64,000 nucleotides of DNA. Source: Candidatus Nomurabacteria bacterium (GTDB taxonomy: Bacteria; Patescibacteriota; Minisyncoccia; Phycocordibacterales; UBA9973). Shown piece after piece: positions 16,993-42,191 of the stretch; positions within the stretch are counted from its first letter, which is position 1, and each line of letters opens with the position of its first letter. The notes below the pieces were generated by a model. It ran no database searches and was not told the DNA's origin. It saw only the letters and a list, made by a program, of their open reading frames with translations. The stretch lies in NCBI GenBank assembly GCA_023898605.1, contig CP060230.1, positions 67,944 to 131,943 of the forward strand. The letters are read 5' to 3'. Position numbers and translations under genes: made by a program.

Positions 16993-17066
16993 GCTCGGGT
17001 AGCTCAGTTGGTTAGAGCACTCGCCTGAAGAGCGAGGTGTCGGCAGTTCGAGTCTGCCCCCGAGCA
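16993..17066 (+). tRNA. tRNA-Phe (anticodon GAA)
   Basis: The acceptor is GCTCGGG/CCCGAGC, the anticodon loop is CTGAAGA and the T loop is TTCGAGT. The flanks tttacaaagt and actttgtaaa extend the acceptor helix by 10 bp. Confidence 0.9.
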
Positions 17067-17092
17067 CTTTGTAAATAAGATTAGATGTGTAT

Positions 17093-17215
17093 GCTCAGTA
17101 CCGACGTCCCGACATGTGGTCGTCGGGAGCACGGAGAGCCGACAGAATCGTCGGCTTTGGTTAGAGCACTCGCCTGAAGAGCGAGGTGTCGGCAGTTCGA
17201 GTCTGCCCCCGAGCA
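17093..17215 (+). pseudogene. 3' part of the ghost tRNA-Phe with a ~57-nt double-hairpin insert after GCTCAG
   Basis: 17157-17216 is a 60-bp perfect repeat of 17008-17067. There is no matching 5' acceptor strand. The insert holds the hairpins tcccgac/gtcggga and gccgac/gtcggc. Confidence 0.6.
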
Positions 17216-17249
17216 CAAGATATAACCTAGTCAATTCTAATTTTAAAAA

Positions 17250-29135: not shown

Positions 29136-29565
29136 CTCAAAAAGCGCCACTTGGCGCTTTTTATTTTTGTGAAGTTTTGCCACCCTCCCGTTCGTGTGTG
29201 CGTAAAACCCCGCTCGTAAGGACGAGAGGGGGAGGTGCGAGCGGGGCTCCCTAAAAACAAAACCACTCATATTATAAGTGGTTTTGGAGCAAGGTATACT
29301 CATCTGTCGCTATCTAAGTTACCAGTTCTTATACAACTGCTCATCAAGCTCTAAAGATATTGATAACTATTGCTCAGTCTGACCTTTATTTTCCGCGTCG
29401 TTGGCGCAAAGCACTTGCGGCAACAGATTTTTCTTTTTTTCGAGGGAGGTCCTTTCTCAAAAGTTTTGATGCAAGTTTGCCAACTTTTTTACTAGTTTTT
29501 GCCATAAAATTATATAAATTAATTATTAATATCGACCAATATAGAAATATGTGGAAAACTGTACA

Positions 29566-29594
29566 TTGAAAACTTTCTATATATTTTCTATAAT
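29566..29594 (+). promoter_or_regulatory. promoter TTGAAA-17-TATAAT giving a near-leaderless lexA-MTase mRNA
   Basis: The TATAAT ends 7 nt before the ATG at 29602. The promoter is flanked and overlapped by the inverted repeat atatagaaa (29539-29547) / tttctatat (29574-29582). Confidence 0.55.
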
Positions 29595-29601
29595 ATCATA
29601 C

Positions 29602-31050
29602 ATGATTACAAAAAAGCAAAAAAATGTGCTGGATTTTATAAAAAATTTTCAGCAAAAAAATGCTATATCCCCATCATTAGAAGAAATTAAGAAAAAATTT
29701 GGTTTAGCTTCCGTTTCTACAGCTTCTTATTATGTTGAAAAACTAGAAAGCAAAGGATATTTAAAAAAAGACGACAAACAACACAGAGGAATATCGGTTT
29801 TTGAAAACGAAAGCATGGTAAAAATACCTTTACTTGGCGTAATTGCTGCTGGAGAACCAATACAATCCATAGAAAACCGTGAAGAGATTGCACTTCCAAA
29901 GAGTAGGATAGGCAACAACAATAATGTTTTTGCATTGAGGGTCTCAGGAGACAGTATGATCGACGAAAATATACAAGACGGTGATGTGGTTGTTGTAAGA
30001 GAAACTAAAAACCCCACAAACGGTGATAAGGTTGTCGCATTAATAGATCGAGAGAATGTTACTTTAAAAACTTTTTATAAGGAAAAAAAACAAATTTTAC
30101 TTAAACCAGCAAATAAAAAATATGACTCGATTGTCATAGATAAAAATAGAGAATTTGAAATTCAAGGAGTGATGATTGATATTGTAAAACAATCATTTAA
30201 CAATCCTGTAGATATTATATTTCCAGAAAAGGCGCAGAAACGAAAAACGACTATTCCTCTAAATAAAGTAGTGTGTGGAGATTGTGTTGATGTGATGAAA
30301 AATATACCAGACAACTCCGTTGACATGGTCGTTACTTCTCCACCTTATGATGATGTAAGAAACTATAATGGTTTTAGTTTTAACCTACACGACACAGGTA
30401 AAGAAATCTTTAGAATTTTAAAAGACGGTGGTGTTGTAGCTATGGTTATCCAAGATCAAACAAAAAATTTTGGTAAAAGTTTAACATCTTTTAGAACTAT
30501 CGTTGATTGGGTGGATAATATAGGTTTTAAATTATTTGAAACAGTAATTTATAGAAAACATGGTACCGAGGGGGCATGGTGGAAATATCGTTTTAGGGTA
30601 GATCATGAATATATGCCAATTTTTATTAAAGGAGAAAGACCCAGCTATTTTAATAAAGAAAATCTTAAGATACCCTCAAAGCATGGTGGAAAAGTAATGA
30701 CTGGTAGTGGAAATAGAAAGACTGATGGAACAACAACAAAAACAGTTACAAGACCTATAAATTTAAATAAATGCCGTGGAACTATTTGGGATTATTTGAA
30801 TGCAGGTGATAAGAATCCATTAAAAAGAAAACATCCAGCTGTATTCCCAGATCAAATTCCTGTGGATTTTATAGATTGTTTTTGTCCGCCTAAAGGCATA
30901 GTCCTTGATCCGTTTGTAGGTTCAGGATCAACACTAGTTGCCGCTAAAAAGCTCGGGAGAAATTATATTGGGATTGATATCTCACAAGAGTATTGTGATC
31001 TAACAGAGGAAAGATTAAAAAAGGATATACCAAACACCTTATTTAAATAG
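29602..31050 (+). CDS. LexA (wHTH plus S24 peptidase) fused to a beta-class N4/N6 DNA methyltransferase
   Basis: The N-terminal half has LexA features: cleavage site VIAAGEP, the Ser motif VSGDSM and the Lys motif VTLKTFY. The C-terminal half has MTase motif IV (TSPPY) and motif I (DPFVGSGST). The frame is continuous. Confidence 0.85.
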   Translation: MITKKQKNVLDFIKNFQQKNAISPSLEEIKKKFGLASVSTASYYVEKLESKGYLKKDDKQHRGISVFENESMVKIPLLGVIAAGEPIQSIENREEIALPKSRIGNNNNVFALRVSGDSMIDENIQDGDVVVVRETKNPTNGDKVVALIDRENVTLKTFYKEKKQILLKPANKKYDSIVIDKNREFEIQGVMIDIVKQSFNNPVDIIFPEKAQKRKTTIPLNKVVCGDCVDVMKNIPDNSVDMVVTSPPYDDVRNYNGFSFNLHDTGKEIFRILKDGGVVAMVIQDQTKNFGKSLTSFRTIVDWVDNIGFKLFETVIYRKHGTEGAWWKYRFRVDHEYMPIFIKGERPSYFNKENLKIPSKHGGKVMTGSGNRKTDGTTTKTVTRPINLNKCRGTIWDYLNAGDKNPLKRKHPAVFPDQIPVDFIDCFCPPKGIVLDPFVGSGSTLVAAKKLGRNYIGIDISQEYCDLTEERLKKDIPNTLFK

Positions 31051-31053
31051 ATT

Positions 31054-32079
31054 TTATTCCATCTTATCAGGAGTTTCTAAGGTGTATTCTATATTTATTC
31101 CACTTGTCATTGCCCAAGATAATGGGTTTTTATCAAAAAACGCCTTGAAATTAACATTTGTTAATGTTTTTCCGTCTTTTTCGAAACTGCTTTTTGTAAA
31201 TTTATACAATTTAAATCCATTCCATCTCCACGAATTTTTCTTGTATTCCCACTTAGTTAAAGAGCCAAGCAATGTTAAGAATTTTTCAATTCTCTCCACT
31301 GCACCTTGATTAATTTTATAGCTAGTTCCATCTTCCTCAGTATTGTAATGTTCGCCATCTTTAGTTGATATTTTTAATCTATCACCCCTTTCGTGAGGAA
31401 TACTTATTTTATCCCTTTCTCTAAAGAAATTATCCATCTCTCTCATCAAGTTTATAATTGTTGTATATTTTTCATTTTCAAAAATTACATTTAAAGGGCT
31501 ATTTTTTTTATCAGCATCAAGATAATTTAACCAATTTAAAACATTCTCCGGATAACTAAATAAAACATTGAAAACACCATCTGTGAAATATAGTGGCGGT
31601 ATAGAATCCTCATCCAAAGCGACACGAGTGTGTTCGTTTACTATTCCCATAAGAATATGAATTGTTGCCAGTGGATATTTAAGACGAAAGTCATGTTTTC
31701 CGTCATACTCTCTTAAATTATTTGGCTGGATACAGTTTTTAAATTTTTCATCCCAATTTGCAGGTTTATTATTTTTATTTAAAAGCAACATATGGTGACC
31801 CAAACTACGAATATCGCCTCTGGAGATTTCCATGTCTAAAAAGATACAATCTTTTGGTTTAATTCCATCCTTTAAAACCATAACCTTCCCATCATAAAAA
31901 CCTTCTATAGTCCAATCAAAATAATGAGACATGAACAGCCCACATAGCAAACCGTCACTATCCGGACTAAGAATTGCTTTATGATTTCTCTCAACGATCC
32001 AAGGATATTTTTTGATTAAATCTTTATAATCAATTTTATCATTGTGTCTATTTTCTAATAATCTCTGTATATTTGACAT
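31054..32079 (-). CDS. putative type II restriction endonuclease
   Basis: The call rests on context. The gene is convergent with the MTase (3-bp gap) and 4 nt downstream of a C-protein-like HTH gene. No family was recognised by eye. Confidence 0.45.
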   Translation of the reverse strand: MSNIQRLLENRHNDKIDYKDLIKKYPWIVERNHKAILSPDSDGLLCGLFMSHYFDWTIEGFYDGKVMVLKDGIKPKDCIFLDMEISRGDIRSLGHHMLLLNKNNKPANWDEKFKNCIQPNNLREYDGKHDFRLKYPLATIHILMGIVNEHTRVALDEDSIPPLYFTDGVFNVLFSYPENVLNWLNYLDADKKNSPLNVIFENEKYTTIINLMREMDNFFRERDKISIPHERGDRLKISTKDGEHYNTEEDGTSYKINQGAVERIEKFLTLLGSLTKWEYKKNSWRWNGFKLYKFTKSSFEKDGKTLTNVNFKAFFDKNPLSWAMTSGINIEYTLETPDKME

Positions 32080-32083
32080 AAAT

Positions 32084-32305
32084 TTATTTAACGAAAAAAT
32101 CTAGCGATTTTTTATAAAGTTTTGCAAACTCTTTGAGTTGCAAAACATCAAAGCGTCTTTGTCCAGATTCTATCTTTGAGACATAAGATTGAGTTCTGCC
32201 AAGTTTTTCAGAGACTCCAATCTGACTTAAACCAGCTTCAAGACGCGCTTTTTTCAAGCGTTCTACTATTTTCTTATGGTCGTCTTGATAAATCGCTCTT
32301 GGCAT
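32084..32305 (-). CDS. XRE-family HTH, controller (C) protein-like
   Basis: The 73-aa protein shows LSQIGVSEKLGRTQSYVSKIESGQR and sits immediately upstream of the putative REase. Confidence 0.7.
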   Translation of the reverse strand: MPRAIYQDDHKKIVERLKKARLEAGLSQIGVSEKLGRTQSYVSKIESGQRRFDVLQLKEFAKLYKKSLDFFVK

Positions 32306-32365
32306 ATATCTATATAATAGTATTCCATTGTGTATTATTCCAAATTGCCATATAATTTATATAGA

Positions 32366-32455
32366 CCCGCCCGAAGCCCCATCGCCATACCTTTTCAAAA
32401 AGAATCCCTTCGCGAAAAAGAAAAAGAATGGAGATGCGGAACGGGGCGAGGGCGG
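32366..32455. repeat. GC-rich long imperfect inverted repeat at the island edge
   Basis: cccgcccgaagccccatcgcc is roughly complementary to ggagatgcggaacggggcgagggcgg across an A-rich loop. Confidence 0.4.
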
Positions 32456-32737
32456 AGCGCCGAGGTACAAGGTGCTAGTCGGCATGATTAGTAGTTTTCG
32501 AAAAAAGTTCGCGCATTGGTTATAATTTCATCACAAAGTACACAAAAATCCCACGCAGGTGGGATTTTTGGTCTTTGTGACCCTAGTCGTGGTGCGACCA
32601 TACGATTCGTTGCTCCCACAATGCTTTTTTGGCTTTTTCTATTATATCAAGTCGACCCTTGTCGAGCGACAAAAAGTGACAAAAGTGACACAGGTTTAAA
32701 TAAAAAGGTTACAGCAATCTGTAACCTTTTTGCTACT

Positions 32738-34030
32738 TTATGGATTTAATCGCTTAACATCTCTTGGGAGATAAGTCGCCTCGCGAACATTTGGCAGGTC
32801 GAGGATTTTCATAATGAATCGTCCAGGACCAATACCTGCACCTCCATGTGGAGAGCATCCCCATCGGAAAAAGTTGAGATAATCTTTTAATTCTTCAAGA
32901 GACATACCTTTCTCTTTTGCTTGTTTCTCAAGTATCTCAATGCGGTGCTCACGTTGTGCAAGAGTCGTTACTTCAATACCTTTAAACAAAAGGTCTGCGC
33001 GCTTGCCCCGACCTTCTTCGTTGCGCATATGATAAAAGGCACTTTTTGATACATGGTATTCAGTAATGAAGACGAAGTCGTGATTGTGCTTTTCTCGTAC
33101 GTATTCACTGATAGCGCGCTCTTCTTCTGGAGAGAGATCGTGTTCTTCTCCGCTTGCCACACCACGCTCTGCAAGTATCTTTTTTGCTTCAACCATCGTA
33201 ATCTGCGGAAAAGGCATACTAGGGATTTCTAGTTGGAGCTCTGGAAACTTTTCTTTTAATCGGGTAAATCCAGAAACTATCATATTTTCCTCGGCAACAA
33301 TGATGTCCTGATGAGATTCAATGTAGGCCATTTCAAAATCCCAACCAGTAAATTCTGTAAGGTGTCGGGTTGTAAATGAAAGCTCTGCTCGAAATACAGG
33401 ACCTGTCATAAACACTCTTTCAAAACCACTTGCAATAGCCATTTGTTTATAGAACTGTGGTGACTGTGCAAGATATGCCTTGCGGTCAAAGTAGTTAACT
33501 TCAAAGACTTCAGCACCAGTTTCGCTTGGCGTTGACATGAATGAGGGTGTATAGATTTGAATAAAATTATTTTTATCCCAGTAGTCACGGAAGCCTTTTT
33601 CAAGTTCCGTCCATACCTTGAAAATCTTTAGATGATCTGGTTTACGAAGATCAATCCAGCGATAGTCGAAACGTATAGGTGCTTCAGTTTCTTCTCCACC
33701 CTTCTTTTCAATAATTGGTATCGGTAGCTGTGCATCGGCAGCTGAAAGTACTTCGATTGAAGTAGCTTCTATTTCATAACCACAAGGTGCCTGAGCTGCC
33801 TCTTTCACAAGGCCTACAACTTTAACCACTGATTCTGTAGTAAGTTCCTTGGCAATTTGAAAAGCCTCGGCCTGTTCAATGGTAACGACTGTTTGCAAGA
33901 TACCAGTTACATCCCGAACAATAAGGAATGCGATTTTACTTTGCGCACGTATAGTATGAGCAAAGCCTACGACAGTAGTCTCTTTCCCTGAATACTCAGG
34001 AATGTCTTTAATATAGGTTCTTATAATCAT
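32738..34030 (-). CDS. aspS: aspartyl-tRNA synthetase, archaeal/type-2 (possibly non-discriminating)
   Basis: A 430-aa class IIb aaRS with an N-terminal OB fold and class II motifs. The C-terminal string GGAGIGPGRFIM..REATYLPRDVKRLNP favours AspRS over AsnRS. Confidence 0.8.
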   Translation of the reverse strand: MIIRTYIKDIPEYSGKETTVVGFAHTIRAQSKIAFLIVRDVTGILQTVVTIEQAEAFQIAKELTTESVVKVVGLVKEAAQAPCGYEIEATSIEVLSAADAQLPIPIIEKKGGEETEAPIRFDYRWIDLRKPDHLKIFKVWTELEKGFRDYWDKNNFIQIYTPSFMSTPSETGAEVFEVNYFDRKAYLAQSPQFYKQMAIASGFERVFMTGPVFRAELSFTTRHLTEFTGWDFEMAYIESHQDIIVAEENMIVSGFTRLKEKFPELQLEIPSMPFPQITMVEAKKILAERGVASGEEHDLSPEEERAISEYVREKHNHDFVFITEYHVSKSAFYHMRNEEGRGKRADLLFKGIEVTTLAQREHRIEILEKQAKEKGMSLEELKDYLNFFRWGCSPHGGAGIGPGRFIMKILDLPNVREATYLPRDVKRLNP

Positions 34031-34039
34031 ATTTATTAG

Positions 34040-34260
34040 AGATGAAGGAACAAAAATGCCCCTTCGAACTTATGTTGATAAGCTCGCAGGGGCGATAGTA
34101 TATCGCGGTGCCACCCTACTTTTTTCTCTGGCTCCGTATCGTTGCCTCCCCGTTGTCAGTGGTTCAAAGGCTTCGATATGCAGTAACGCTACTATATCAC
34201 AAACACATACTTAAGTAAAGCGGTAGCGAAAAGCTTTTCGCAAGTATGCTATGTATTTCT
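34040..34260 (-). promoter_or_regulatory. T-box leader upstream of aspS
   Basis: The minus strand carries AGGGTGGCACCGCG (complement of 34104-34117), matching the T-box consensus. The terminator GCCCCT..AGGGGC plus T-run lies at 34093-34052. A candidate specifier GAC-A is seen in cactGACAacgg. Confidence 0.6.
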
Positions 34261-34310
34261 AGTCCTGCATAGTCTTAGCAAACATAGTGAACTCTGTCAT
34301 CAATATATAC

Positions 34311-35594
34311 ATGACAGAAATAATAAAAGACAATTTAAAGTATTGTTTGTACGCCCGCAAATCAACCGAAGCAGAAGAAAAACAAGCTCTTTCTATTGAT
34401 TCCCAAATCAAAGAAATGAAGCAAATAGCTGATCGTGAAGGGTTAAATATTGTTGAGATTCGTCGTGAATCTCATAGTGCAAAAGAATCAGGTCAACGAC
34501 CAGTATTTGAAGAAATACTAAAGGATATAGACGACGGCATATTTAACGCCATTATCACTTGGGCACCAGATAGATTAAGTCGTAATGCAGGAGACCTAGG
34601 AAAACTGGTTGATCGTATAGATCAAAAGAAACTAACTCAAATCAAAACTTTTGGTCAGACATTTACAAACTCACCAAGTGACAAATTTCTTCTTATGATT
34701 TTGTGTTCTCAAGCAAAACTTGAGAATGACAACAAGAGTATTAATGTGAAGCGAGGTATGAGAGCACGGTGTGAAATGGGATTATGGCCAGTACAGCCAC
34801 CAACTGGATATAGAAAGCCAAATGAGAGATTGTCTAAATGTGAAGTAGAGATTGATCCAGAAAGAGCACCGGTTATCAAACAAATTTTTGAAAAGATTGC
34901 ATACGAACGATGGAGCGGAATGAGAGTATATTCGTGGTTGCGATATGAATTAAATTTTAAAACACACAAAGGATTCTATTTAAGTGTCGGAAATGTATTT
35001 AAGATAATCAACAACACCTTTTATTACGGACGATTTGAATTTCCACAAGGAAGTGGAAACTGGTATGACGGAAAACACACACCAATAATCAGTAAAGAAC
35101 TTTTTGATGATTGTCGATCTGCAATTAAAACACAGGTCATAAAAACCCATGGAAAAGAGTTTGCGTTTACTCGAATGGTGAAATGTGGATCGTGCGGATC
35201 GGGGATTACTGCTGATGAGAAGTTCAAGAAGTTGCTAAACGGAGGAGTAAATAGACATGTCTATTATAGGTGTACGAAGTCGAAAGATAGAAAATGTACG
35301 AATCCTGCAATAAACGAAGACGATCTATTAAAAGAATTTCAGAAAATGGCAGGAACTTTGGAACTTAATGAAGTACAACTTAATGAGAAATTAAATCTTG
35401 AAATTAAGAAATTCAAAAAACTTCAAGCGATGTTTTTAGGAAAGGACAACCCAGCAGATATACAGAAAGTTGATCTCAGAAATTACATGAAATTCGTTTT
35501 GAAAGACGGAACAATTTTAGAAAAACGATCGGTTCTTGATTGTATAAAAAACGATCTAGTTTTGAAAAATAAGATCATAATAGTTAAAGAGTAA
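34311..35594 (+). CDS. large serine recombinase
   Basis: Shows YARKSTEAEEKQALSIDSQ (catalytic Ser region), a recombinase domain and a Cys-rich zinc ribbon (CGSCGSG...YYRC). I prefer the ATG at 34311. Confidence 0.9.
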   Translation: MTEIIKDNLKYCLYARKSTEAEEKQALSIDSQIKEMKQIADREGLNIVEIRRESHSAKESGQRPVFEEILKDIDDGIFNAIITWAPDRLSRNAGDLGKLVDRIDQKKLTQIKTFGQTFTNSPSDKFLLMILCSQAKLENDNKSINVKRGMRARCEMGLWPVQPPTGYRKPNERLSKCEVEIDPERAPVIKQIFEKIAYERWSGMRVYSWLRYELNFKTHKGFYLSVGNVFKIINNTFYYGRFEFPQGSGNWYDGKHTPIISKELFDDCRSAIKTQVIKTHGKEFAFTRMVKCGSCGSGITADEKFKKLLNGGVNRHVYYRCTKSKDRKCTNPAINEDDLLKEFQKMAGTLELNEVQLNEKLNLEIKKFKKLQAMFLGKDNPADIQKVDLRNYMKFVLKDGTILEKRSVLDCIKNDLVLKNKIIIVKE

Positions 35595-35710
35595 AACTAA
35601 CTTTTTAAACAAAAATACCTAACGAGATCATCGTTAGGTATTTTTGTTATTCTTTATAGCAAGGGTATTTAGTGACCCTTGTCGAGTGCTCGAACTAGCA
35701 CTCGACTCTG

Positions 35711-35782
35711 TGACCCTACGGGGAATCGAACCCCGATTACCGGCTTGAAAAGCCGATGTCCTAACCGTTAGACGATAGGGCC
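35711..35782 (-). tRNA. tRNA-Glu (anticodon TTC)
   Basis: The reverse complement is GGCCCTATCGTCTAACGGTTAGGACATCGGCTTTTCAAGCCGGTAATCGGGGTTCGATTCCCCGTAGGGTCA, which folds as a cloverleaf. Confidence 0.9.
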
Positions 35783-35898
35783 ATTTGGTGGAAAGATTAT
35801 AACACAAGAAAATGATAAAGCAAACGGTATTTCCTTGTCAGATATATGTTTTGTGGTAAGATTTGTTTAAGCGTTTTTTCTGAAAAATCGGGGGAATA

Positions 35899-36048
35899 AT
35901 GGTGGGTTTTTGGCGTCGTCATTATAGTACGTCTGATTCCGTGGTTGTTTTCTGCCACCCCCGATTTTTTCCAAGTTCTTTACAATGGAAAACCCAGCGA
36001 CCGTCTGGTACGCCTCCATTATACGATTTTCTCGTTAAGTGTGTTTGA
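35899..36048 (+). CDS. possible 49-aa small ORF or structured sRNA
   Basis: The unit has the promoter TTGTCA-16-TAAGAT (35835-35862), a GGGGGA element before the ATG, and a terminator at 36065-36088. A 12-bp inverted repeat (35883-35894 / 35958-35969) spans it. Confidence 0.25.
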   Translation: MVGFWRRHYSTSDSVVVFCHPRFFPSSLQWKTQRPSGTPPLYDFLVKCV

Positions 36049-36064
36049 TTTTTTTGAATTCCGA

Positions 36065-36088
36065 CCCCCGTGCTTGCACGGGGGTTTT
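36065..36088 (+). terminator. intrinsic terminator cccccgtg-cttg-cacggggg-tttt
   Basis: Read directly from the sequence. Confidence 0.7.
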
Positions 36089-36140
36089 ATATTTGTAATA
36101 GATAAATTTCTATGTATAATCAAAAAAAACCCCTGCACCT

Positions 36141-36710
36141 ATGAAAAATATGCAAACCCTCTCCGACCATCAATTGGTCCAAATGTTCATGAGTGATGGA
36201 AATGAACAAGCTTTTGGTGAAATCTATCTTCGGTACGAAAATCCCGTGAGAGATTTTATTAAAAAATTGTTTTACGGCAGTAAAATGCCAAACTGTCAGG
36301 ACGAAGATGATATCGTTCAAGAAACCTTCCTGAATGTACATAGTGCCTTGAAAAGAGGCCTGTACAAGAATGAAGGGAGAATGAAGGCATGGATCTTTAC
36401 TGTCGCAAAGAATCTTTTTCTGACAATTTTCCAAAAAAACAAAAGGAAGCCAGTGTCGGAACTCAATGATTGGTATTCTAAAATGGTGTTTTTGCCAGAT
36501 ATAGAGAACAGAATGTTCTCCGAAAGGGCTTTCGAATTTCTACTAAAAAGCGGTAGAGATTATGATTGTTTGTTTTTGTATGCGATTGGTTTGAAATACA
36601 ACCAAATTGCAGAAGTCATGAATATCTCCAAAAACACCGTAGGGGCAAAAATATTTAAACAAAGAAAATCTTTGGAAGAGGTTTTTGCCCCAGAGAGATC
36701 AGAACGTTGA
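36141..36710 (+). CDS. ECF-type sigma-70 family factor
   Basis: Region 2 reads DIVQETFLNVHSAL...AWIFTVAKNLF. Region 4 reads the HTH YNQIAEVMNISKNTVGAKIFKQRKSL. Confidence 0.8.
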   Translation: MKNMQTLSDHQLVQMFMSDGNEQAFGEIYLRYENPVRDFIKKLFYGSKMPNCQDEDDIVQETFLNVHSALKRGLYKNEGRMKAWIFTVAKNLFLTIFQKNKRKPVSELNDWYSKMVFLPDIENRMFSERAFEFLLKSGRDYDCLFLYAIGLKYNQIAEVMNISKNTVGAKIFKQRKSLEEVFAPERSER

Positions 36711-36809
36711 AAACAACAACTGCGTGCCCCGTGCTGCGCAGTTTTTTTGTGATAAAATATTCTGGTTAATCATTTAACTAAAAAATAAAAAAATATAAAA
36801 ATCGGCACT

Positions 36810-36838
36810 TTGACATAAGTGTCGATTTTATGTAGTAT
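36810..36838 (+). promoter_or_regulatory. promoter TTGACA-17-TAGTAT overlapped by an imperfect inverted repeat
   Basis: Hexamers and spacing were read directly. The repeat tcggcac..gtgtcga flanks the -35 hexamer. Confidence 0.5.
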
Positions 36839-36857
36839 CGAAAAAAAGCACATTCAT

Positions 36858-37904
36858 ATGTCCAATAAAAAACCAGAAATGACCATAGACTATTCTAAGG
36901 CAGAAGAGGTTTTCGGAACATTGTATGATGCTTTCGAAAACAAAACTTTTCCTTTTGACCAAGTCGTTTTACCTCAAAGGAGGGATAACATGCCTGACTC
37001 GATAGAGTGGGGTGGTCGCGATCACGCACTTTTTCTGTTTACTCTATGCTACTACATGAGAGGTCAGATAAAGAGTGAAACTGCTGTAAAAAATCTCAAG
37101 AAAATATGGGAAGACAACAAAGATTTGTTCGACCCAGATTACTTGAAATTTGCGGACCACGAAACAGTTTCCAAGATTATCGAAGACAAGTTGTTTTTTA
37201 ACGGCCTCGGATTCGGATCAAAGTCCATTGCACCCCAATGGTGTCTCAACAAAGTCAAAATAGCCAATCATTGGTCAAGTGATCCACGTAAACTGTTTGA
37301 AAATGTTTCCGGATATGAAGACGCTCTAAAGGTCGTAGCAAACAAGGGTAAATGGAAAGCCGAGAAGCCAAACGGTTTCTATGGTTTCCAAGAGAAAATG
37401 GTTTCCATGCTCGCATATTTTTATGTTGATGCAGGAATTATTTCACCCCTGAGATTCCCGCCACCAATAGATTTTCATATCTTGAGAGTTCTGGTTTCAA
37501 ACGAAGTTTTGAAGATCAGTAACTTCTATCCCGGAATGAGTTTCTATTATGGTAAGACCACCGATATGGCAAGAGAGGTGACAAATTGGTGGTTGGAGAA
37601 ACATTCTAAAGATCCGATGATACTTTCCAACGTTCTGTGGCTTATGTCTCGGGACAACTGTGAAAGATCCCCAACAAACGGATCAATCATTGGAGAGTAC
37701 AAAGCAAGGAGTACTAAGGTGAATCCAAAAAATCTTTCTTTCAAGATGGCCACTAAAAGGTTCGAGAATACCTGCTTCAGGTGTCCGATCAAAGATAGTT
37801 GTAGGTATGATATACCATCGGCTTCTTATTATACACACGGAAAACTCGAAGTAAGGCAAGAGAAGAAAAAGGACTATCTGGTACAACTAAGGTTGAAACT
37901 ATAA
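36858..37904 (+). CDS. HhH-GPD-superfamily-like protein (putative DNA glycosylase) with C-terminal Cys cluster
   Basis: FYGFQEKMVSMLAYFYVDAGII..PPPIDFHILRVLVSN aligns by eye with the EndoIII hairpin region (GVGRKTA....VDTHI.RV). The C-terminal CFRCPIKDSC has C-x2-C-x5-C spacing. Confidence 0.4.
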   Translation: MSNKKPEMTIDYSKAEEVFGTLYDAFENKTFPFDQVVLPQRRDNMPDSIEWGGRDHALFLFTLCYYMRGQIKSETAVKNLKKIWEDNKDLFDPDYLKFADHETVSKIIEDKLFFNGLGFGSKSIAPQWCLNKVKIANHWSSDPRKLFENVSGYEDALKVVANKGKWKAEKPNGFYGFQEKMVSMLAYFYVDAGIISPLRFPPPIDFHILRVLVSNEVLKISNFYPGMSFYYGKTTDMAREVTNWWLEKHSKDPMILSNVLWLMSRDNCERSPTNGSIIGEYKARSTKVNPKNLSFKMATKRFENTCFRCPIKDSCRYDIPSASYYTHGKLEVRQEKKKDYLVQLRLKL

Positions 37905-37978
37905 GCGTTTGATTTGAATTTTCAGTCAAACGCTTTTTCTTTTTGCATAAAGTGGGGGATAGGAATATAATTTACATT

Positions 37979-38581
37979 ATGATAAAAGTTGACTACAAAG
38001 AAGCTTTTTTGGGGATACTAGGTGCGGTTCTTGTAATTGTTGCTATCGGAGTTGCACCACTGGAAAAAATCAAAAATTCTTCTACAAACAAAGGTGAGGT
38101 CGGTGTTTCTGATTATGAAAAAACTGTAAACGAAATACTGTCTGTTATTGCTCTATCTTCGGAAGTAAACGAGCCGGTGGGGTCTTTGTTTGAAGAATAC
38201 TACTCAACACATTCTTCTTCTGATATGAGTGTTGCAGAAAAGAATCTACTTGATCAAGCAAGACGAAGACTAGATGGGGCAGGGGTTTCACTCAGGATAC
38301 CAACTGTCGAAGGTGTGAATTTATACTCTATGCAAGGAGGTGACGGATACGGTGGATATTTCTGGGTCCTGTGGCTTTCTGAAGAAAGAAGAGCTGGACT
38401 AGTAGGTAATCCAGATATAACAATAAACTTCCCAGTAGAAGATCCGAGCGTGCTTATGGTCAGAACAGAAAAGTTTATGGTAGACGGAGAAGACCAGCCA
38501 TTAGTCAGGGGTTATCTTATAGAAAATGGTTTTGCAAACCCAACAGTCGGACCGTCTCCAGTGTTTGTAGAATATAAATAA
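37979..38581 (+). CDS. hypothetical N-terminally anchored exported protein
   Basis: Has a single N-terminal TM helix. No family was recognised. Confidence 0.45.
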   Translation: MIKVDYKEAFLGILGAVLVIVAIGVAPLEKIKNSSTNKGEVGVSDYEKTVNEILSVIALSSEVNEPVGSLFEEYYSTHSSSDMSVAEKNLLDQARRRLDGAGVSLRIPTVEGVNLYSMQGGDGYGGYFWVLWLSEERRAGLVGNPDITINFPVEDPSVLMVRTEKFMVDGEDQPLVRGYLIENGFANPTVGPSPVFVEYK

Positions 38582-38602
38582 AAATCTCCGCACAAAGCGG
38601 AG

Positions 38603-38654
38603 TTTTTTTATTCTCTATCTACTCTCTCATCGAGAAGTACTGGCTCTATGTCGC
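38603..38654. repeat. 52-bp duplicate of the rmuC 3' end (copy 1)
   Basis: Identical to 39673-39724: tttttttattctctatctactctctcatcgagaagtactggctctatgtcgc. Confidence 0.9.
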
Positions 38655-38675
38655 CAAAACTTTTTATATTTATAT

Positions 38676-38704
38676 TTGACTTATATATATTTATATAGTA
38701 TAAT
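38676..38704 (+). promoter_or_regulatory. promoter TTGACT-17-TATAAT
   Basis: Hexamers and spacing were read directly. Confidence 0.6.
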
Positions 38705-38723
38705 ATAAAAAAATAACAACAAA

Positions 38724-39668
38724 ATGCACCTTAACAAAAGCCAACAAAAAGAAGTACAAAAATTTCTACAGATGGTAGGTGCTAAAAAGCCACTTACCTT
38801 AGAAGAAGAAAAAAGACTCTTTGAAAAGAGTCTTTCAAAAGACCAAATTAAAAAATTATTGATTTCGCACAATGCTCGTTATATTGTGCATGTAGTGAAA
38901 GAACACCTTTACGAAGGTGTTGAAATAGCTGACCTTCTACAAGAAGGATTGGTAGCGACTTATGTCGCTGCCGATAAATTTGACCATACTCGTGGTTTTA
39001 AATTTATCAGCTACGCTACTCATTACATGAAAGCGTATATTTTGAAATTTTGTTCAGAGGAGATTAATTTTAGCCTAAGTGAGATGCTAAAACACATTAA
39101 GGTAAAAAAAATTTCTTCAATTTTTGAACAAAAGTTTGGGATATACCCTCTAATTCAAGATATTGCCTTTGACGAGGAGGTGATGGAATACCTTGGAATT
39201 AGTAGTGGGAATCTTAAAAAAATTTTTTACAAAATAGAGGTTCTTTCCTTGGAAGCTACTTACAAGGAAAGAAGGGATGGAGAATCCTATACCTCAAGTG
39301 TTTCACCAATCGATGTGTTGATTGATGAAACCTTCGCGATCGATCCTGAGATGGAGAAGGAGTCCTTCAGGATGGACTTAAAAGAGTTTTTCAAAATCTT
39401 AAATATCCGTCTAAGGACGGACTTGTCCTTTCTTATCTTCAATATAGGTTCGCAAGAGCTTATAAAAGATTCGAAGGACAATCTCGTCCAAGAATTGATG
39501 GAAGAATATCCATCAGGATATGAAGTTGACTTGGAAACCCTGGGACTCGTCTTGGGGATTAGCAAGGAAAGGGTAAGGCAAAGGATTCATAAGAGCATCT
39601 CTGAGCTAAGAAAAAGGGAGAAGCTTGTGAGTCTGTTTTTTGAAAAACATAGAAGCCTTCTTAATTGA
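38724..39668 (+). CDS. sigma-70 family RNA polymerase sigma factor (group 3/4-like)
   Basis: Region 2 reads DLLQEGLVATYVAADKFDHTRGFKFISYATHYMKAYI. Region 4 reads LGISKERVRQRIHKSISELRK. Confidence 0.8.
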   Translation: MHLNKSQQKEVQKFLQMVGAKKPLTLEEEKRLFEKSLSKDQIKKLLISHNARYIVHVVKEHLYEGVEIADLLQEGLVATYVAADKFDHTRGFKFISYATHYMKAYILKFCSEEINFSLSEMLKHIKVKKISSIFEQKFGIYPLIQDIAFDEEVMEYLGISSGNLKKIFYKIEVLSLEATYKERRDGESYTSSVSPIDVLIDETFAIDPEMEKESFRMDLKEFFKILNIRLRTDLSFLIFNIGSQELIKDSKDNLVQELMEEYPSGYEVDLETLGLVLGISKERVRQRIHKSISELRKREKLVSLFFEKHRSLLN

Positions 39669-39672
39669 AGGC

Positions 39673-39724
39673 TTTTTTTATTCTCTATCTACTCTCTCAT
39701 CGAGAAGTACTGGCTCTATGTCGC
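39673..39724. repeat. 52-bp repeat (copy 2), including the true rmuC stop and last 15 codons
   Basis: Identical to 38603-38654. Confidence 0.9.
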
Positions 39725-40718
39725 TAGATGCTCCAGCGATACGCAAGACGTCTTTGTCGACTTTCTTGAGTTCTTTTCCAGAAGAGTTATAGTGATTTAC
39801 TGCAGTCGATAAGGTGTTGCCGAGTTTGTTATGATAATCCTCATAAGCTTTCAAGTGTTTACCTAGATCTTCAACTCTTTTGATTATTTCTTGTGCGCGT
39901 TCTTCTATCTCTAGAGCTTTGAGCCCTTGGAGAACAGTTTGGAGGAATGCTAGGAATGAAGTAGGAGAGACTATGATAACTTTTTTTTCTTTGAACGCAT
40001 AGTCTATGAGGTCACGAGTGTTGACCTTGATACCGCCGACTTGAGCAACAAGAAGATCATAATATATAGCTTCGTGAGGTATGAACATAAACGCAAAGTC
40101 CATAGTTCCTTCGCTTGGTTTTACGTATTTACTTGTTTCGTCGATACGAAGCTTGAGATCGTTCTTGAACTGCTTCTCCAACTCTTCTCTTCGAGACTTA
40201 TCTTTTTCTTCGACAAGACGGTTGTAGTTTTCTAGAGAAAACTTGGAGTCTATCGGTATAATCTTGTCTTTGACGAAAACAACTGCATCGACAATAGTAC
40301 CGTCTTTGAAACCATACTGTACTTGGTATGAGCTTGGAGGAAGAACATTTTTCAAAACTGTTTCTAGATAATATTCGCCCAAGATACCTCTTTGTTTTGG
40401 ATTCTTGAGTATGTCCTGGAGACTTTCTAGCTGTTCGGCGAAACCTACAACTTGTTTTCCGGTTTCTTTGACTTCAGTAAGTTCGCGAGTTATTTCTCGT
40501 ATTATTTTTTGTGATTCTCCCGCTTGGTATCGTATAGATTCGTTGACTTGTCTTTCTGTTTCGCGGAGTTTCTGATCGAGAGTATTGGAGAGGTTGTTTA
40601 GTTGCTGTAGTAGTAGGGAAGAGTCGCCATCTTTTGGAGAAGAGTTCTTGTTTTTGGAAAGATAAAAAATAATCCCCAAAAGCATGATGACTATAATTCC
40701 AAAAAAGATGTTTTCCAT
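39678..40718 (-). CDS. rmuC: DNA recombination protein RmuC
   Basis: Has an N-terminal TM helix, a coiled coil, and the RmuC nuclease-like core (DAVVFVKDKIIPIDSKFSLENY). Confidence 0.9.
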   Translation of the reverse strand: MENIFFGIIVIMLLGIIFYLSKNKNSSPKDGDSSLLLQQLNNLSNTLDQKLRETERQVNESIRYQAGESQKIIREITRELTEVKETGKQVVGFAEQLESLQDILKNPKQRGILGEYYLETVLKNVLPPSSYQVQYGFKDGTIVDAVVFVKDKIIPIDSKFSLENYNRLVEEKDKSRREELEKQFKNDLKLRIDETSKYVKPSEGTMDFAFMFIPHEAIYYDLLVAQVGGIKVNTRDLIDYAFKEKKVIIVSPTSFLAFLQTVLQGLKALEIEERAQEIIKRVEDLGKHLKAYEDYHNKLGNTLSTAVNHYNSSGKELKKVDKDVLRIAGASSDIEPVLLDERVDRE

Positions 40719-40755: not shown

Positions 40756-40960
40756 TTGACTTTTGACTGATAATGTTTAATATCGGTTTTGAATAAAGCA
40801 CATATAGATGAAAGAAAAAAATATACAAAAAGTGCCCATTGTCTGGGCACCAGGGCATCATGTATCTGTAAAAACTATGGACCAGTTGCCTAGCCACAAC
40901 TACGAAACACCGGACTATTTAGTTCGGAAATGACCCAAGGCCGCGTTTGCGGCCTTTTTT
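40756..40960 (+). ncRNA. orphan small transcription unit (sRNA or 41-aa ORF at 40808..40933)
   Basis: The promoter is TTGACT-16-TAATAT (40756-40783). The body is GC-enriched. A strong terminator (aggccgc-gttt-gcggcct plus T6, 40938-40960) is oriented for the plus strand. Confidence 0.3.
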
Positions 40961-41708
40961 ATTGTTCGAGGAAATATTTGAGAGTATATAGCCAGTCTTC
41001 TTCTCCATCAGGGTTTTTTAGTTTTTCGTTGTACATCCACTCTAGATAACCTCTATCCATTTTGGCAACGTCTTCTACTTTTTGTCCGTTATATTTTCCA
41101 AAACCAAAAACTCTCATTATAGAAGGCTTGCTAGAGATTTCTATCATTTCTTTTATTGCTTCTTCTTCGTCGCCATTGTTTTTGTCTAGAAACTTTTTGT
41201 AGAGTCTTTCAAATAGTTTTCCCAGAACCAAAACATCACCCTTGGCATCATGAGCTTGAGCATCTACATCCATATCTAGAAAGTATCTTAGGTACTGCAA
41301 GTTGTATCTCGGTATTTTGGAGTCTTTGTCCATATGGCGTACGAGTCTCAGTGTGCAGATAAAGTCACCGATGTTTATGTCTTCTTTTGAAAACATATTT
41401 ATATCGAAAGGTGCGTTGTGTGCTACTGGTATATTATCTCTATCTTCAAAAAGTTTTTTGATTTTTTCATAATCAGAACTTTTTTTGAAAGCTTCTTTTC
41501 CTTCTACCATTTTGTTTGAGATATGATGAACTGCACTTGCTTCTGGTGGTATGGGTTTTCCAGGATTGTACAACTCTACAAAAATCTCACCATCTTCAAA
41601 GCTTGTGTCACCACGCTCTTTCTTGGCATAAGCTATTTGGCATAGTACATCTTCTTCTGTGTTTCCAGTAGTTTCTGTATCAAAAAATATAAAATTCTTC
41701 ATAGCCAT
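40959..41708 (-). CDS. DEDDh 3'-5' exonuclease with C-terminal DUF3820-like domain
   Basis: Shows FFDTETTG, HNAPFDINM and HDAKGDV. The C-terminal part reads KYNGQKVEDVAKMDRGYLEWMY. I place the start at the ATG at 41708. Confidence 0.8.
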   Translation of the reverse strand: MAMKNFIFFDTETTGNTEEDVLCQIAYAKKERGDTSFEDGEIFVELYNPGKPIPPEASAVHHISNKMVEGKEAFKKSSDYEKIKKLFEDRDNIPVAHNAPFDINMFSKEDINIGDFICTLRLVRHMDKDSKIPRYNLQYLRYFLDMDVDAQAHDAKGDVLVLGKLFERLYKKFLDKNNGDEEEAIKEMIEISSKPSIMRVFGFGKYNGQKVEDVAKMDRGYLEWMYNEKLKNPDGEEDWLYTLKYFLEQ

Positions 41709-41738
41709 ACTATACAACTTTTGATATAATCTTTCTAT

Positions 41739-42191
41739 ATGAGTTTGCAAACAGACATAAAAGAAAAAATAAAAGAAGCAATGTTGGCAAAGGACCAAGT
41801 AAGGCTTGGTGTTATGAGGATGCTAACTAGTGCGTTTACAAATGAGCTTGTAGCCAAGGGTAAAAAGCCGACAGAAGAACTTTCTGACGACGAGGCATTG
41901 GCCGTGATTGCAAGGCTTGCAAAACAGAGAAAAGACTCAATAAGTCAGTTCGAAGCCGGTGGAAGAATGGATCTTGTAGAAGAAGAGAAGGGTCAGCTAA
42001 CTATTCTAGAAGAATTTTTACCAGAAATGATGGGAGAAGATGAAGTTAGAAGTTTTGTTTCTACAAAGAAAACAGAGCTCGGAGTAGATGATCCAAAAGA
42101 CAAAGGAAAGCTTATGTCAGAAGTTATGAAAGAATTAAAAGGTCGAGCCGATGGAGGCATTGTAAAAAGTGTAGTAGATAGTTTGTTTTAA
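41739..42191 (+). CDS. GatB/YqeY domain protein
   Basis: Shows IKEAMLAKDQVRLGVMRMLTSAF and a 150-aa family pattern. Confidence 0.85.
   Translation: MSLQTDIKEKIKEAMLAKDQVRLGVMRMLTSAFTNELVAKGKKPTEELSDDEALAVIARLAKQRKDSISQFEAGGRMDLVEEEKGQLTILEEFLPEMMGEDEVRSFVSTKKTELGVDDPKDKGKLMSEVMKELKGRADGGIVKSVVDSLF

Follow-up and report, generated by a model that had tools for sequence, protein, structure and literature searches.

A probable mobile element that carries an aspartyl-tRNA synthetase gene beside a large serine recombinase at a tRNA-Glu gene of Candidatus Nomurabacteria

What does a serine recombinase gene move when it stands beside a tRNA gene, and on which side of the tRNA does the moved DNA lie? 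The question is raised by a 64,000-nucleotide stretch of a Candidatus Nomurabacteria genome (assembly GCA_023898605.1, contig CP060230.1, positions 67,944 to 131,943), here called the window, in whose coordinates all positions are given. In it, the gene for a 427-aa large serine recombinase (LSR; 34311-35594, plus strand) lies next to an intact host tRNA-Glu(UUC) gene (35710-35782, minus strand; ARAGORN, and Rfam at 64.6 bits). A preliminary description of the locus had placed an island to the right, from the LSR gene to 38602. The block of high identity and the end motifs instead extend leftwards of the tRNA, over 32577-35713. The likely explanation of this segment is an integrated mobile element at the end of tRNA-Glu, with the LSR as its integrase and an aspartyl-tRNA synthetase (AspRS) gene as its only cargo.

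The locus was compared with about 100 related loci (designated by L numbers), and the end motifs were scanned for in 75 genome loci with a gene for a relative of the recombinase. Domains were called with Pfam, NCBIfam and PHROG; RNAs were called with ARAGORN and Rfam. The window has a G+C content of 36-39% and its genes are small and packed; a composition check finds no shift at the locus.

The segment measures 3,133 bp and consists of a left terminal motif P', the AspRS gene with its leader, the LSR gene and a right terminal motif P, joined to the last four bases of tRNA-Glu. P' (GTGACCCTAGTCGTGGTGCGACC; 32577-32599, plus strand) marks the left boundary of the module and begins with a GTGA core at 32577-32580. 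The AspRS gene (32738-34030, minus strand) is preceded by a T-box-like leader (34085-34285, minus strand) and followed by a hairpin terminator that lies within the element (32701-32732). The LSR gene ends in a terminator with an 18-bp stem (35608-35648, plus strand); the terminator scan reports both of these hairpins. P (GACCCTTGTCGAGTGCTCGAACTAGCACTCGACTCT) and a second GTGA core at 35710-35713 together form the right end (attR; 35674-35713, plus strand).

The evidence for movement comes from contigs with an exactly identical AspRS, which were looked up and then compared with the window by BLASTN. In L001, a 643-kb NCBI contig from another genome, identity is 99.66% over 32574-35784. Four short contigs with the same flank as L001 (L003, L004, L008 and L009) are 100% identical to the window at the DNA level over 32574-35738. 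Beyond the module, DNA identity between the window and the L001-type contigs falls to 65-75%. Proteins follow the same pattern: LSR and AspRS are each 100% identical between the window and L001, while the figures are 82% for RmuC, 69.5% for the homologue of a membrane protein (p212), 64% for YqeY, 60% for LeuRS, 54% for ExoX, 53% for HSP20, 50% for TsaD and 49% for PrsW. An identical 3.1-kb block amid flanking proteins of 49-82% identity means that the hosts are very different. The anticodon stem of tRNA-Glu differs between the window and L001 although the module is identical. As judged from these sequences, the best explanation is that the module moved very recently between far-apart hosts of the Candidate Phyla Radiation (CPR).

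The module is found in four different flanks. In the window it adjoins helix-turn-helix and restriction-modification-like genes; in L001 it adjoins a 223-aa gene and others; in L015, where it is 88.9% identical, it lies at tRNA-Arg(GCG) and right-end similarity ends at GTGA; in L101, where it is 88% identical, it lies beside TrxR and FtsZ. Identity starts at the same left boundary, 32574-32577, in all four. Comparison with relatives, which the preliminary description had recommended for locating the boundaries, finds one and the same left edge in flanks that differ between hosts.

The ends are conserved well beyond these four. P' has the consensus [T/G]GTGA[G/C]CCTAnTCGnGnTGCGACC (32576-32599 in the window); 15 other loci have it at their left end. 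P has the consensus GACCCTTsTCGAGTGCTCGAACTAGCnCTC... (35674-35706 in the window) and is kept in about 45 loci, in most of which a tRNA 3' end follows directly (Glu-UUC or Glu-CUC, and Arg-GCG in L015 and L017). The elements cease to resemble one another at GTGA, which reads TCAC in the sense of the tRNA. No sequence other than GTGA is shared by the left and right junctions; the window element therefore spans GTGA at 32577 to GTGA at 35710-35713. Measured from P' to P, the elements in many Paceibacteria are 2.7-15.6 kb long. Nine contigs, L087 and eight metagenome contigs, contain P-GTGA-P' junctions of the kind left by tandem or circular forms.

The preliminary description had also reported a hairpin with a 10-bp stem right after the tRNA. 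It is present (35681-35706, directly 3' of the tRNA) and belongs to the conserved P end of the element. Within P, TCGAGTGCTCGAACTAGC is kept in most family members, and the second arm of the hairpin is not kept, a pattern that points to a protein-binding site or a tRNA-like relic more than to a terminator.

These ends allow a mechanism to be proposed. The LSR would join the attachment site of a small circular element (P, GTGA, P') to the terminal TCAC of a tRNA gene, which in the window genome would be tRNA-Glu(UUC), with crossover somewhere within GTGA. The putative attP junction is reconstructed as ...AGCACTCGACTCT-GTGA-CCCTAGTCGTGGTGCG... and the putative empty attB as ...GGGATTTTTGGTCTTT-GTGA-CCCTACGGGGAATCG... 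Insertion would leave the tRNA intact and part it from its old terminator, so that the P arm would come to lie directly 3' of the tRNA. A minus-strand hairpin terminator just outside the left end of the element (32543-32570; terminator scan) is of the kind to be expected after tRNA-Glu in the uninserted state. It probably terminated tRNA-Glu originally and would serve as the host arm of attL; the left flanks of other members likewise end in a hairpin and T-run before GTGA. AspRS would travel as a passenger, a complete and self-contained gene with its own leader and terminator.

Several observations weigh against this account. The exact 30-nt junction pattern of the species' empty attB has 0 matches in metagenome contigs, and a circular junction of the exact window module was not found, P-P' junctions being seen only in relatives; the insertion polarity and any current activity are therefore only inferred. 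A search of IMG/VR with the P-P' circular or tandem junction pattern gave no match. The att sites of large serine recombinases typically span about 40-50 bp, in which imperfect inverted repeats surround a 2-nt crossover; the core shared here is 4 nt. The preliminary description had proposed a search for att sites with such repeats, and conserved P and P' ends do exist, but inverted-repeat symmetry around the core of the reconstructed attP is not convincing; its CTCGAG palindromes are asymmetric about GTGA. Position 5 of P' is C in the window and L001 (GTGAC, as in tRNA-Glu) and G in all others, which is not what a crossover limited to GTGA would predict. Tandem P-P' junctions are unexpected under canonical attP x attB chemistry. 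The core length, the missing dyad, P' position 5 and the tandem junctions are all departures from textbook LSR behaviour. In addition, the 3.1-kb copy encodes no recombination directionality factor. Finally, many relatives above 85% identity have in common only the LSR segment 34195-35784; AspRS could on this basis be regarded as captured late by a minimal LSR unit.

Some right junctions in the family are irregular. In L076, 17 nt from the 3' end of the tRNA are duplicated in tandem at the junction (about 14990); in L020, L032, L042 and L083, a truncated piece of a tRNA, or else non-tRNA DNA, comes after the P arm. Such junctions may mark insertion sites that are decayed or secondary.

The recombinase has the domains expected of its class. 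The N-terminal catalytic domain matches PF00239 (Resolvase) at 76.7 bits against a cut-off of 23.3, and PF07508 (Recombinase, 40.8 bits) and PF13408 (Zn_ribbon_recom, 39.5 bits) are also above their cut-offs; in PHROG the match is to integrase (E 6e-63). The nearest solved relatives are the SPbeta recombinase YokA (E 2e-10) and the TP901-1 integrase; YARKS in the window LSR aligns with YLRRS of YokA at the conserved YxRxS. The ratio of non-synonymous to synonymous substitution rates (dN/dS), computed against copies from other hosts, lies at 0.027-0.057. The gene is intact and under strong purifying selection, and the stem of its terminator is retained by compensatory changes in homologous loci. 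Some copies in the family are broken (L006, L021). This protein is the probable integrase of the 3,133-bp element, which may still be mobile.

Other recombinases of the family also lie near tRNA genes. Those with 52-60% identity to the window LSR are found 1-2 kb from tRNA-Ser in L045, L053-L057, L062 and L065, which suggests subfamily-specific tRNA targets. In some cases one genome contains two LSR subfamilies (for example L033 and L046, or L052 and L057).

AspRS is of the archaeal, non-discriminating type (NCBIfam NF003483, 447 bits against a cut-off of 353). Its relatives with 84-86% identity are located in a core cluster of DUF1653, AspRS, ScpA, ScpB, MraY, FtsW and MurG. These core-cluster loci contain neither an LSR gene nor the end motifs, and their similarity to the window is limited to the coding sequence. 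Between the window and L097, AspRS is 85.6% identical and MraY, FtsW and MurG are about 53% identical. Within the window, ScpA, ScpB, TrpRS and DUF1653 of the native cluster are absent. The AspRS gene resembles a chromosomal gene of Paceibacteria and so was probably captured from one; it now seems to travel with the recombinase.

The leader of the AspRS gene matches the T-box family weakly (RF00230, 27.9 bits, below the gathering threshold of 93; E 1.4e-4). The T-box and antiterminator part matches well and Stem I is largely missing. The leader contains a perfect T-box core motif, UAGGGUGGCACCGCG, which is also found in the L015 copy; an apparent terminator hairpin with a U-run, read by eye, lies ahead of the AspRS start codon. 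An Rfam search over 32200-36200 reports only the tRNA and this weak T-box. No paper that connects T-box riboswitches with CPR bacteria came up in a literature search.

It is conceivable, if rather doubtful, that the element carries the sole AspRS of its host: a selfish cassette would have captured an essential gene, would replace the native copy and could then not be lost, and its left arm would mimic the 3' end of a tRNA. Such mimicry by P' would mean that each insertion recreates the target, so that tandem islands are built. If true, this would provide a visible vehicle for the replacement of aminoacyl-tRNA synthetases (aaRS) and for island growth in ultra-small genomes.

The features named in the preliminary description to the right of the LSR gene (tRNA-Glu, a sigma factor of the extracytoplasmic function (ECF) type, an HhH-GPD-like protein and an exported protein) are all present, as is the LSR gene itself; apart from the last four bases of the tRNA, these right-hand features lie outside the element. 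Nearest to the tRNA is a plus-strand stretch (35835-36086) with a promoter-like site, a possible 49-aa open reading frame (ORF) read by eye (35900-36049) and a strong terminator with a 10-bp G+C-rich stem (36063-36086), which stands there without an obvious gene. The fold of a 35860-36095 transcript is not distinctive (z = -2.3), and there is no Rfam match.

The ECF sigma gene (36141-36710, plus strand) has its promoter at 36093-36120 and its terminator at 36718-36743. Its product matches TIGR02937 (48.1 bits against 42.9) and Sigma70_r2 (31.3 against 24), while region 4_2 is below its cut-off (21.9 against 25.7). There is no co-transcribed anti-sigma gene: the ECF gene has its own terminator, and the neighbouring genes encode the HhH-GPD-fold protein and a protein whose only membrane segment is N-terminal. 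The only relatives found were the protein itself and one 48% match. The surrounding region, 35783-36772, is the only lineage-specific part to the right of the tRNA. A degenerate repeat of some 67 nt, made up of terminator and promoter sequence, lies on both sides of the gene (36056-36122 and 36717-36772); the two copies score 42, against 20.3 +/- 3.5 in shuffled sequence.

A second sigma gene, of the sigma-70 family (38724-39668, plus strand), constitutes a separate 1,070-bp insertion (38603-39724); a perfect 52-nt direct repeat of the 3' end of rmuC stands on each side of the gene. The first copy is at 38603-38654; the second, at 39673-39724, is the 3' end of rmuC itself (39678-40718, minus strand), beyond which lies an ExoX-like exonuclease gene (40959-41798, minus strand). 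This insertion is absent from L001 and L078. The repeats around both sigma genes hint at a separate insertion route for single-gene cassettes; a circle may, for instance, have been inserted by Campbell-type homologous recombination.

Between the sigma genes lies a gene for a 348-aa protein (p348; 36858-37904, plus strand). It has 59 homologues, those with a named source being from CPR bacteria, and none of them contains a Pfam domain; the protein itself has no match in Pfam (including PF00730), NCBIfam or PHROG. A profile search against the PDB gives only AGOG (E 0.57), with the D205 motif aligned to the PVD of AGOG. The AlphaFold (AF2) model has a confidence (pLDDT) of 93.9. The top 30 Foldseek matches to it are all HhH-GPD proteins (the DUF2419 queuine salvage enzyme, MutY, EndoIII, OGG and MagIII), with E values of 7e-5 to 4e-1, query TM scores of 0.36-0.48 and target TM scores of up to 0.72. 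At the level of fold, the model and these matches bear out the earlier HhH-GPD guess. Invariant residues are K180, D205 (in PxPxDFHxxR) and four Cys, namely C306, C309 and C315 in CxxCx5C and C268 upstream of them; from the modelled fold and these residues, the protein is a putative Fe-S DNA glycosylase. A conserved pairing of p348 with the ECF sigma gene was considered and rejected because the contexts of the homologues differ.

The next gene encodes p212, a membrane or exported protein of about 200 aa (37979-38581, plus strand) with an N-terminal hydrophobic segment, and is followed by a bidirectional terminator (38586-38602). It was previously labelled an orphan; this label does not hold, since its homologue of 69.5% identity adjoins rmuC in L001. 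There, the interval from tRNA-Glu to RmuC contains two unknown genes, Cyt-b5, a 123-aa membrane protein and the p212 homologue. In L116, Cyt-b5 and a 126-aa gene are followed by a 69% homologue of p348; in L078, just 1.1 kb or so separates tRNA-Glu from RmuC. The gene order shared by L001 and L116 identifies the p348 and p212 genes as part of a chromosomal neighbourhood with patchy loss. No remnants of Cyt-b5 or the 123-aa gene are found in 35783-36140. The interval from tRNA-Glu to rmuC is flexible; the ECF, HhH-GPD-fold and membrane-protein genes are chromosomal, and none is cargo of the element.

The preliminary description gave every gene of its island its own promoter and terminator. On a promoter-like score out of 12, with at least 10/12 counted as a good site, good sites are present 8-20 nt 5' of the start codons of the ECF, p348, p212 and second sigma genes, and also upstream of the tRNA; the LSR gene, by contrast, has no match of 9/12 or better in the promoter scan. 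Terminators of the LSR, ECF and p212 genes are on the scan list, whereas the one behind p348 is a hairpin read by eye (37905-37935) that is missing from that list. Terminator-like sites number 22 in 32-42 kb, with 6.2 +/- 2.3 expected; two other 20-kb stretches contain 21 (12.3 expected) and 27 (12.2 expected). Genes elsewhere are indeed packed end to end, as had been said of core genes, at 42.5-50.8 kb and 52-59 kb.

Three other explanations of the locus need to be weighed against an AspRS-LSR element. The rightward island was conceived as a prophage remnant or other integrated element whose sigma factors, glycosylase-like protein and exported protein are cargo that redirects transcription. 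The separate signals of its genes, the variable content between tRNA-Glu and rmuC in different species, the near absence of relatives of the ECF sigma and the PHROG sigma-factor families that match both sigma genes all speak for it. It is nevertheless very improbable: the high-identity block and the end motifs lie to the left of the tRNA, in L001 and L116 the homologues of p212 and p348 are part of a shared chromosomal neighbourhood, and more distant p348 homologues are scattered over unrelated CPR chromosomal contexts. Nor is there a compositional shift, a phage gene in the window copy or an att-type motif around 35783-38602. The intact recombinase does mark an integrated element at the tRNA, as the preliminary description supposed; the direction, extent and nature given for that element were wrong, and its role as a prophage remnant redirecting transcription is unsupported, since the window copy lacks phage genes.

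A narrower unit is also conceivable, in which LSR alone (about 34240-35713) was inserted between a resident AspRS gene and tRNA-Glu, and AspRS identity arose by homologous recombination of a larger block. L016-L023, with LSR identity above 85%, share only 34195-35784 and have other genes upstream; unequal synonymous divergence (dS) in the window-L015 pair (0.89 for LSR, 0.43 for AspRS) suggests a mosaic history. This explanation is unlikely, because the AspRS-LSR pair keeps its left boundary and P' in four unrelated flanks, one of them with a different tRNA; there is, moreover, no terminal motif between AspRS and LSR, and native AspRS loci lack flanking similarity. As for an assembly or binning artefact, in which a repeat was collapsed between co-occurring genomes, same-sample contigs do break at the block ends (L005 and L092; L016, L018 and L021). 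We give it almost no credence: the L001-type flank occurs in six contigs from separate sequencing runs as well as in the 643-kb NCBI contig, the window-type flank occurs in three ENA assemblies, and both window junctions are spanned (L005, L007, L010, L092). Since independent samples and assemblers back each context, a chimera is ruled out. An integrated element of AspRS and LSR remains the preferred reading.

The window copy is a stripped-down member of a family, 2.7-15.6 kb in size, that targets tRNA ends. In other members, cargo sits on one side of the recombinase or the other, towards P' or towards P. It consists of a methyltransferase in L021, a helicase in L018 and, as read by eye from the translation, an acetyltransferase-like 439-aa protein in L050. 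The 15-kb L028 contains a LexA-like repressor, a ParB-methylase, TerS, TerL and a type I restriction-modification system; L093, an IMG/VR contig, contains TerS/TerL, a diversity-generating retroelement (DGR; Avd and reverse transcriptase) and a type III restriction-modification system. Terminase genes are annotated only in these larger relatives. The window element contains AspRS and LSR only, and ORF, Pfam and PHROG checks find no phage structural, packaging or lysis genes in it. The preliminary description had suggested a comparison with viral contigs; family relatives are encoded there, but by only 4-5 contigs in IMG/VR, so that a link to virus particles is weak.

Two other loci of the window deserve mention. 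To the left of the element, 29551-32305 encodes an N6/N4 DNA methylase with a full LexA (DNA-binding domain and S24 peptidase) at its N-terminus (29551-31050, plus strand), an unusual fusion. The gene is convergent with a controller-like HTH_3 gene (32084-32305, minus strand) and a 341-aa ORF without a family match (31054-32079, minus strand); together these are a probable type II restriction-modification unit. Further away, after tRNA-Phe (16993-17067), come two hairpins in a spacer of some 90 nt and then a perfect 58-nt copy of the 3' part of this tRNA (17157-17216), which a partial tRNA reported by Rfam (17153-17207) overlaps. This copy looks like the footprint of another tRNA integration or excision.

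The genomes of CPR bacteria (Patescibacteria) are tiny, and phylogenetic incongruence of aaRS genes is well known. The module described here offers a concrete mechanism for such incongruence, as it has moved a complete AspRS gene, still 100% identical in DNA, between hosts with LeuRS proteins of only 60% identity. The same recombinase family mounts defence cargo (restriction-modification, DGR) and terminase genes; given this varied cargo, it may be a major builder of flexible tRNA-gene islands in the phylum. To organisms that at present lack any genetic tool, the recombinase and its short, defined ends also offer a candidate. In a literature search, no account of such a family of serine-recombinase elements in Patescibacteria or CPR bacteria came up.

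Among known systems, the LSR phage integrases (SPbeta SprA/YokA, TP901-1, phiC31/Bxb1) have the same three-domain recombinase with YxRxS, site-specific integration and a recombinase gene beside one end of the element. In contrast to these, the window LSR, which has low similarity to them, would target the extreme 3' end of several tRNA genes. Its element is only 3.1 kb, contains one housekeeping gene and neither phage genes nor a directionality factor, and has a 4-nt core without evident inverted-repeat att architecture.

In the staphylococcal cassette chromosome (SCC), the Ccr large serine recombinases insert cassettes at the 3' end of rlmH, and tandem composite arrays result. Insertion of cargo by an LSR at the 3' end of a conserved gene is a shared feature, as are tandem arrangements, seen here as P-P' junctions. 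The best NCBIfam match of the window LSR is in fact CcrB; at 127 bits against a cut-off of 900, the protein is not a Ccr orthologue. Unlike SCC, the element is found in a different host phylum, has a single recombinase and targets a tRNA gene rather than rlmH.

The tycheposons of Prochlorococcus are tRNA-specific and occur in cargo-carrying or terS-bearing, satellite-like forms; tandem junctions have been reported, and a minority use a large serine recombinase, while most use tyrosine recombinases and leave partial-tRNA repeats (bioRxiv 10.1101/2020.12.28.424599). The family described here resembles them in its streamlined hosts, its tRNA targets and its cargo and satellite-like forms. It differs in its Patescibacteria hosts and, for the window copy, in having an essential translation gene as cargo and no replication module that could be seen.

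Mobile aaRS genes, such as the plasmid-borne ileS2/mupA, move between lineages. As in that case, an aaRS gene is located on mobile DNA; in contrast to it, the gene here encodes a typical Paceibacteria AspRS, with no evidence of a role in resistance, and the vehicle and its junctions are visible.

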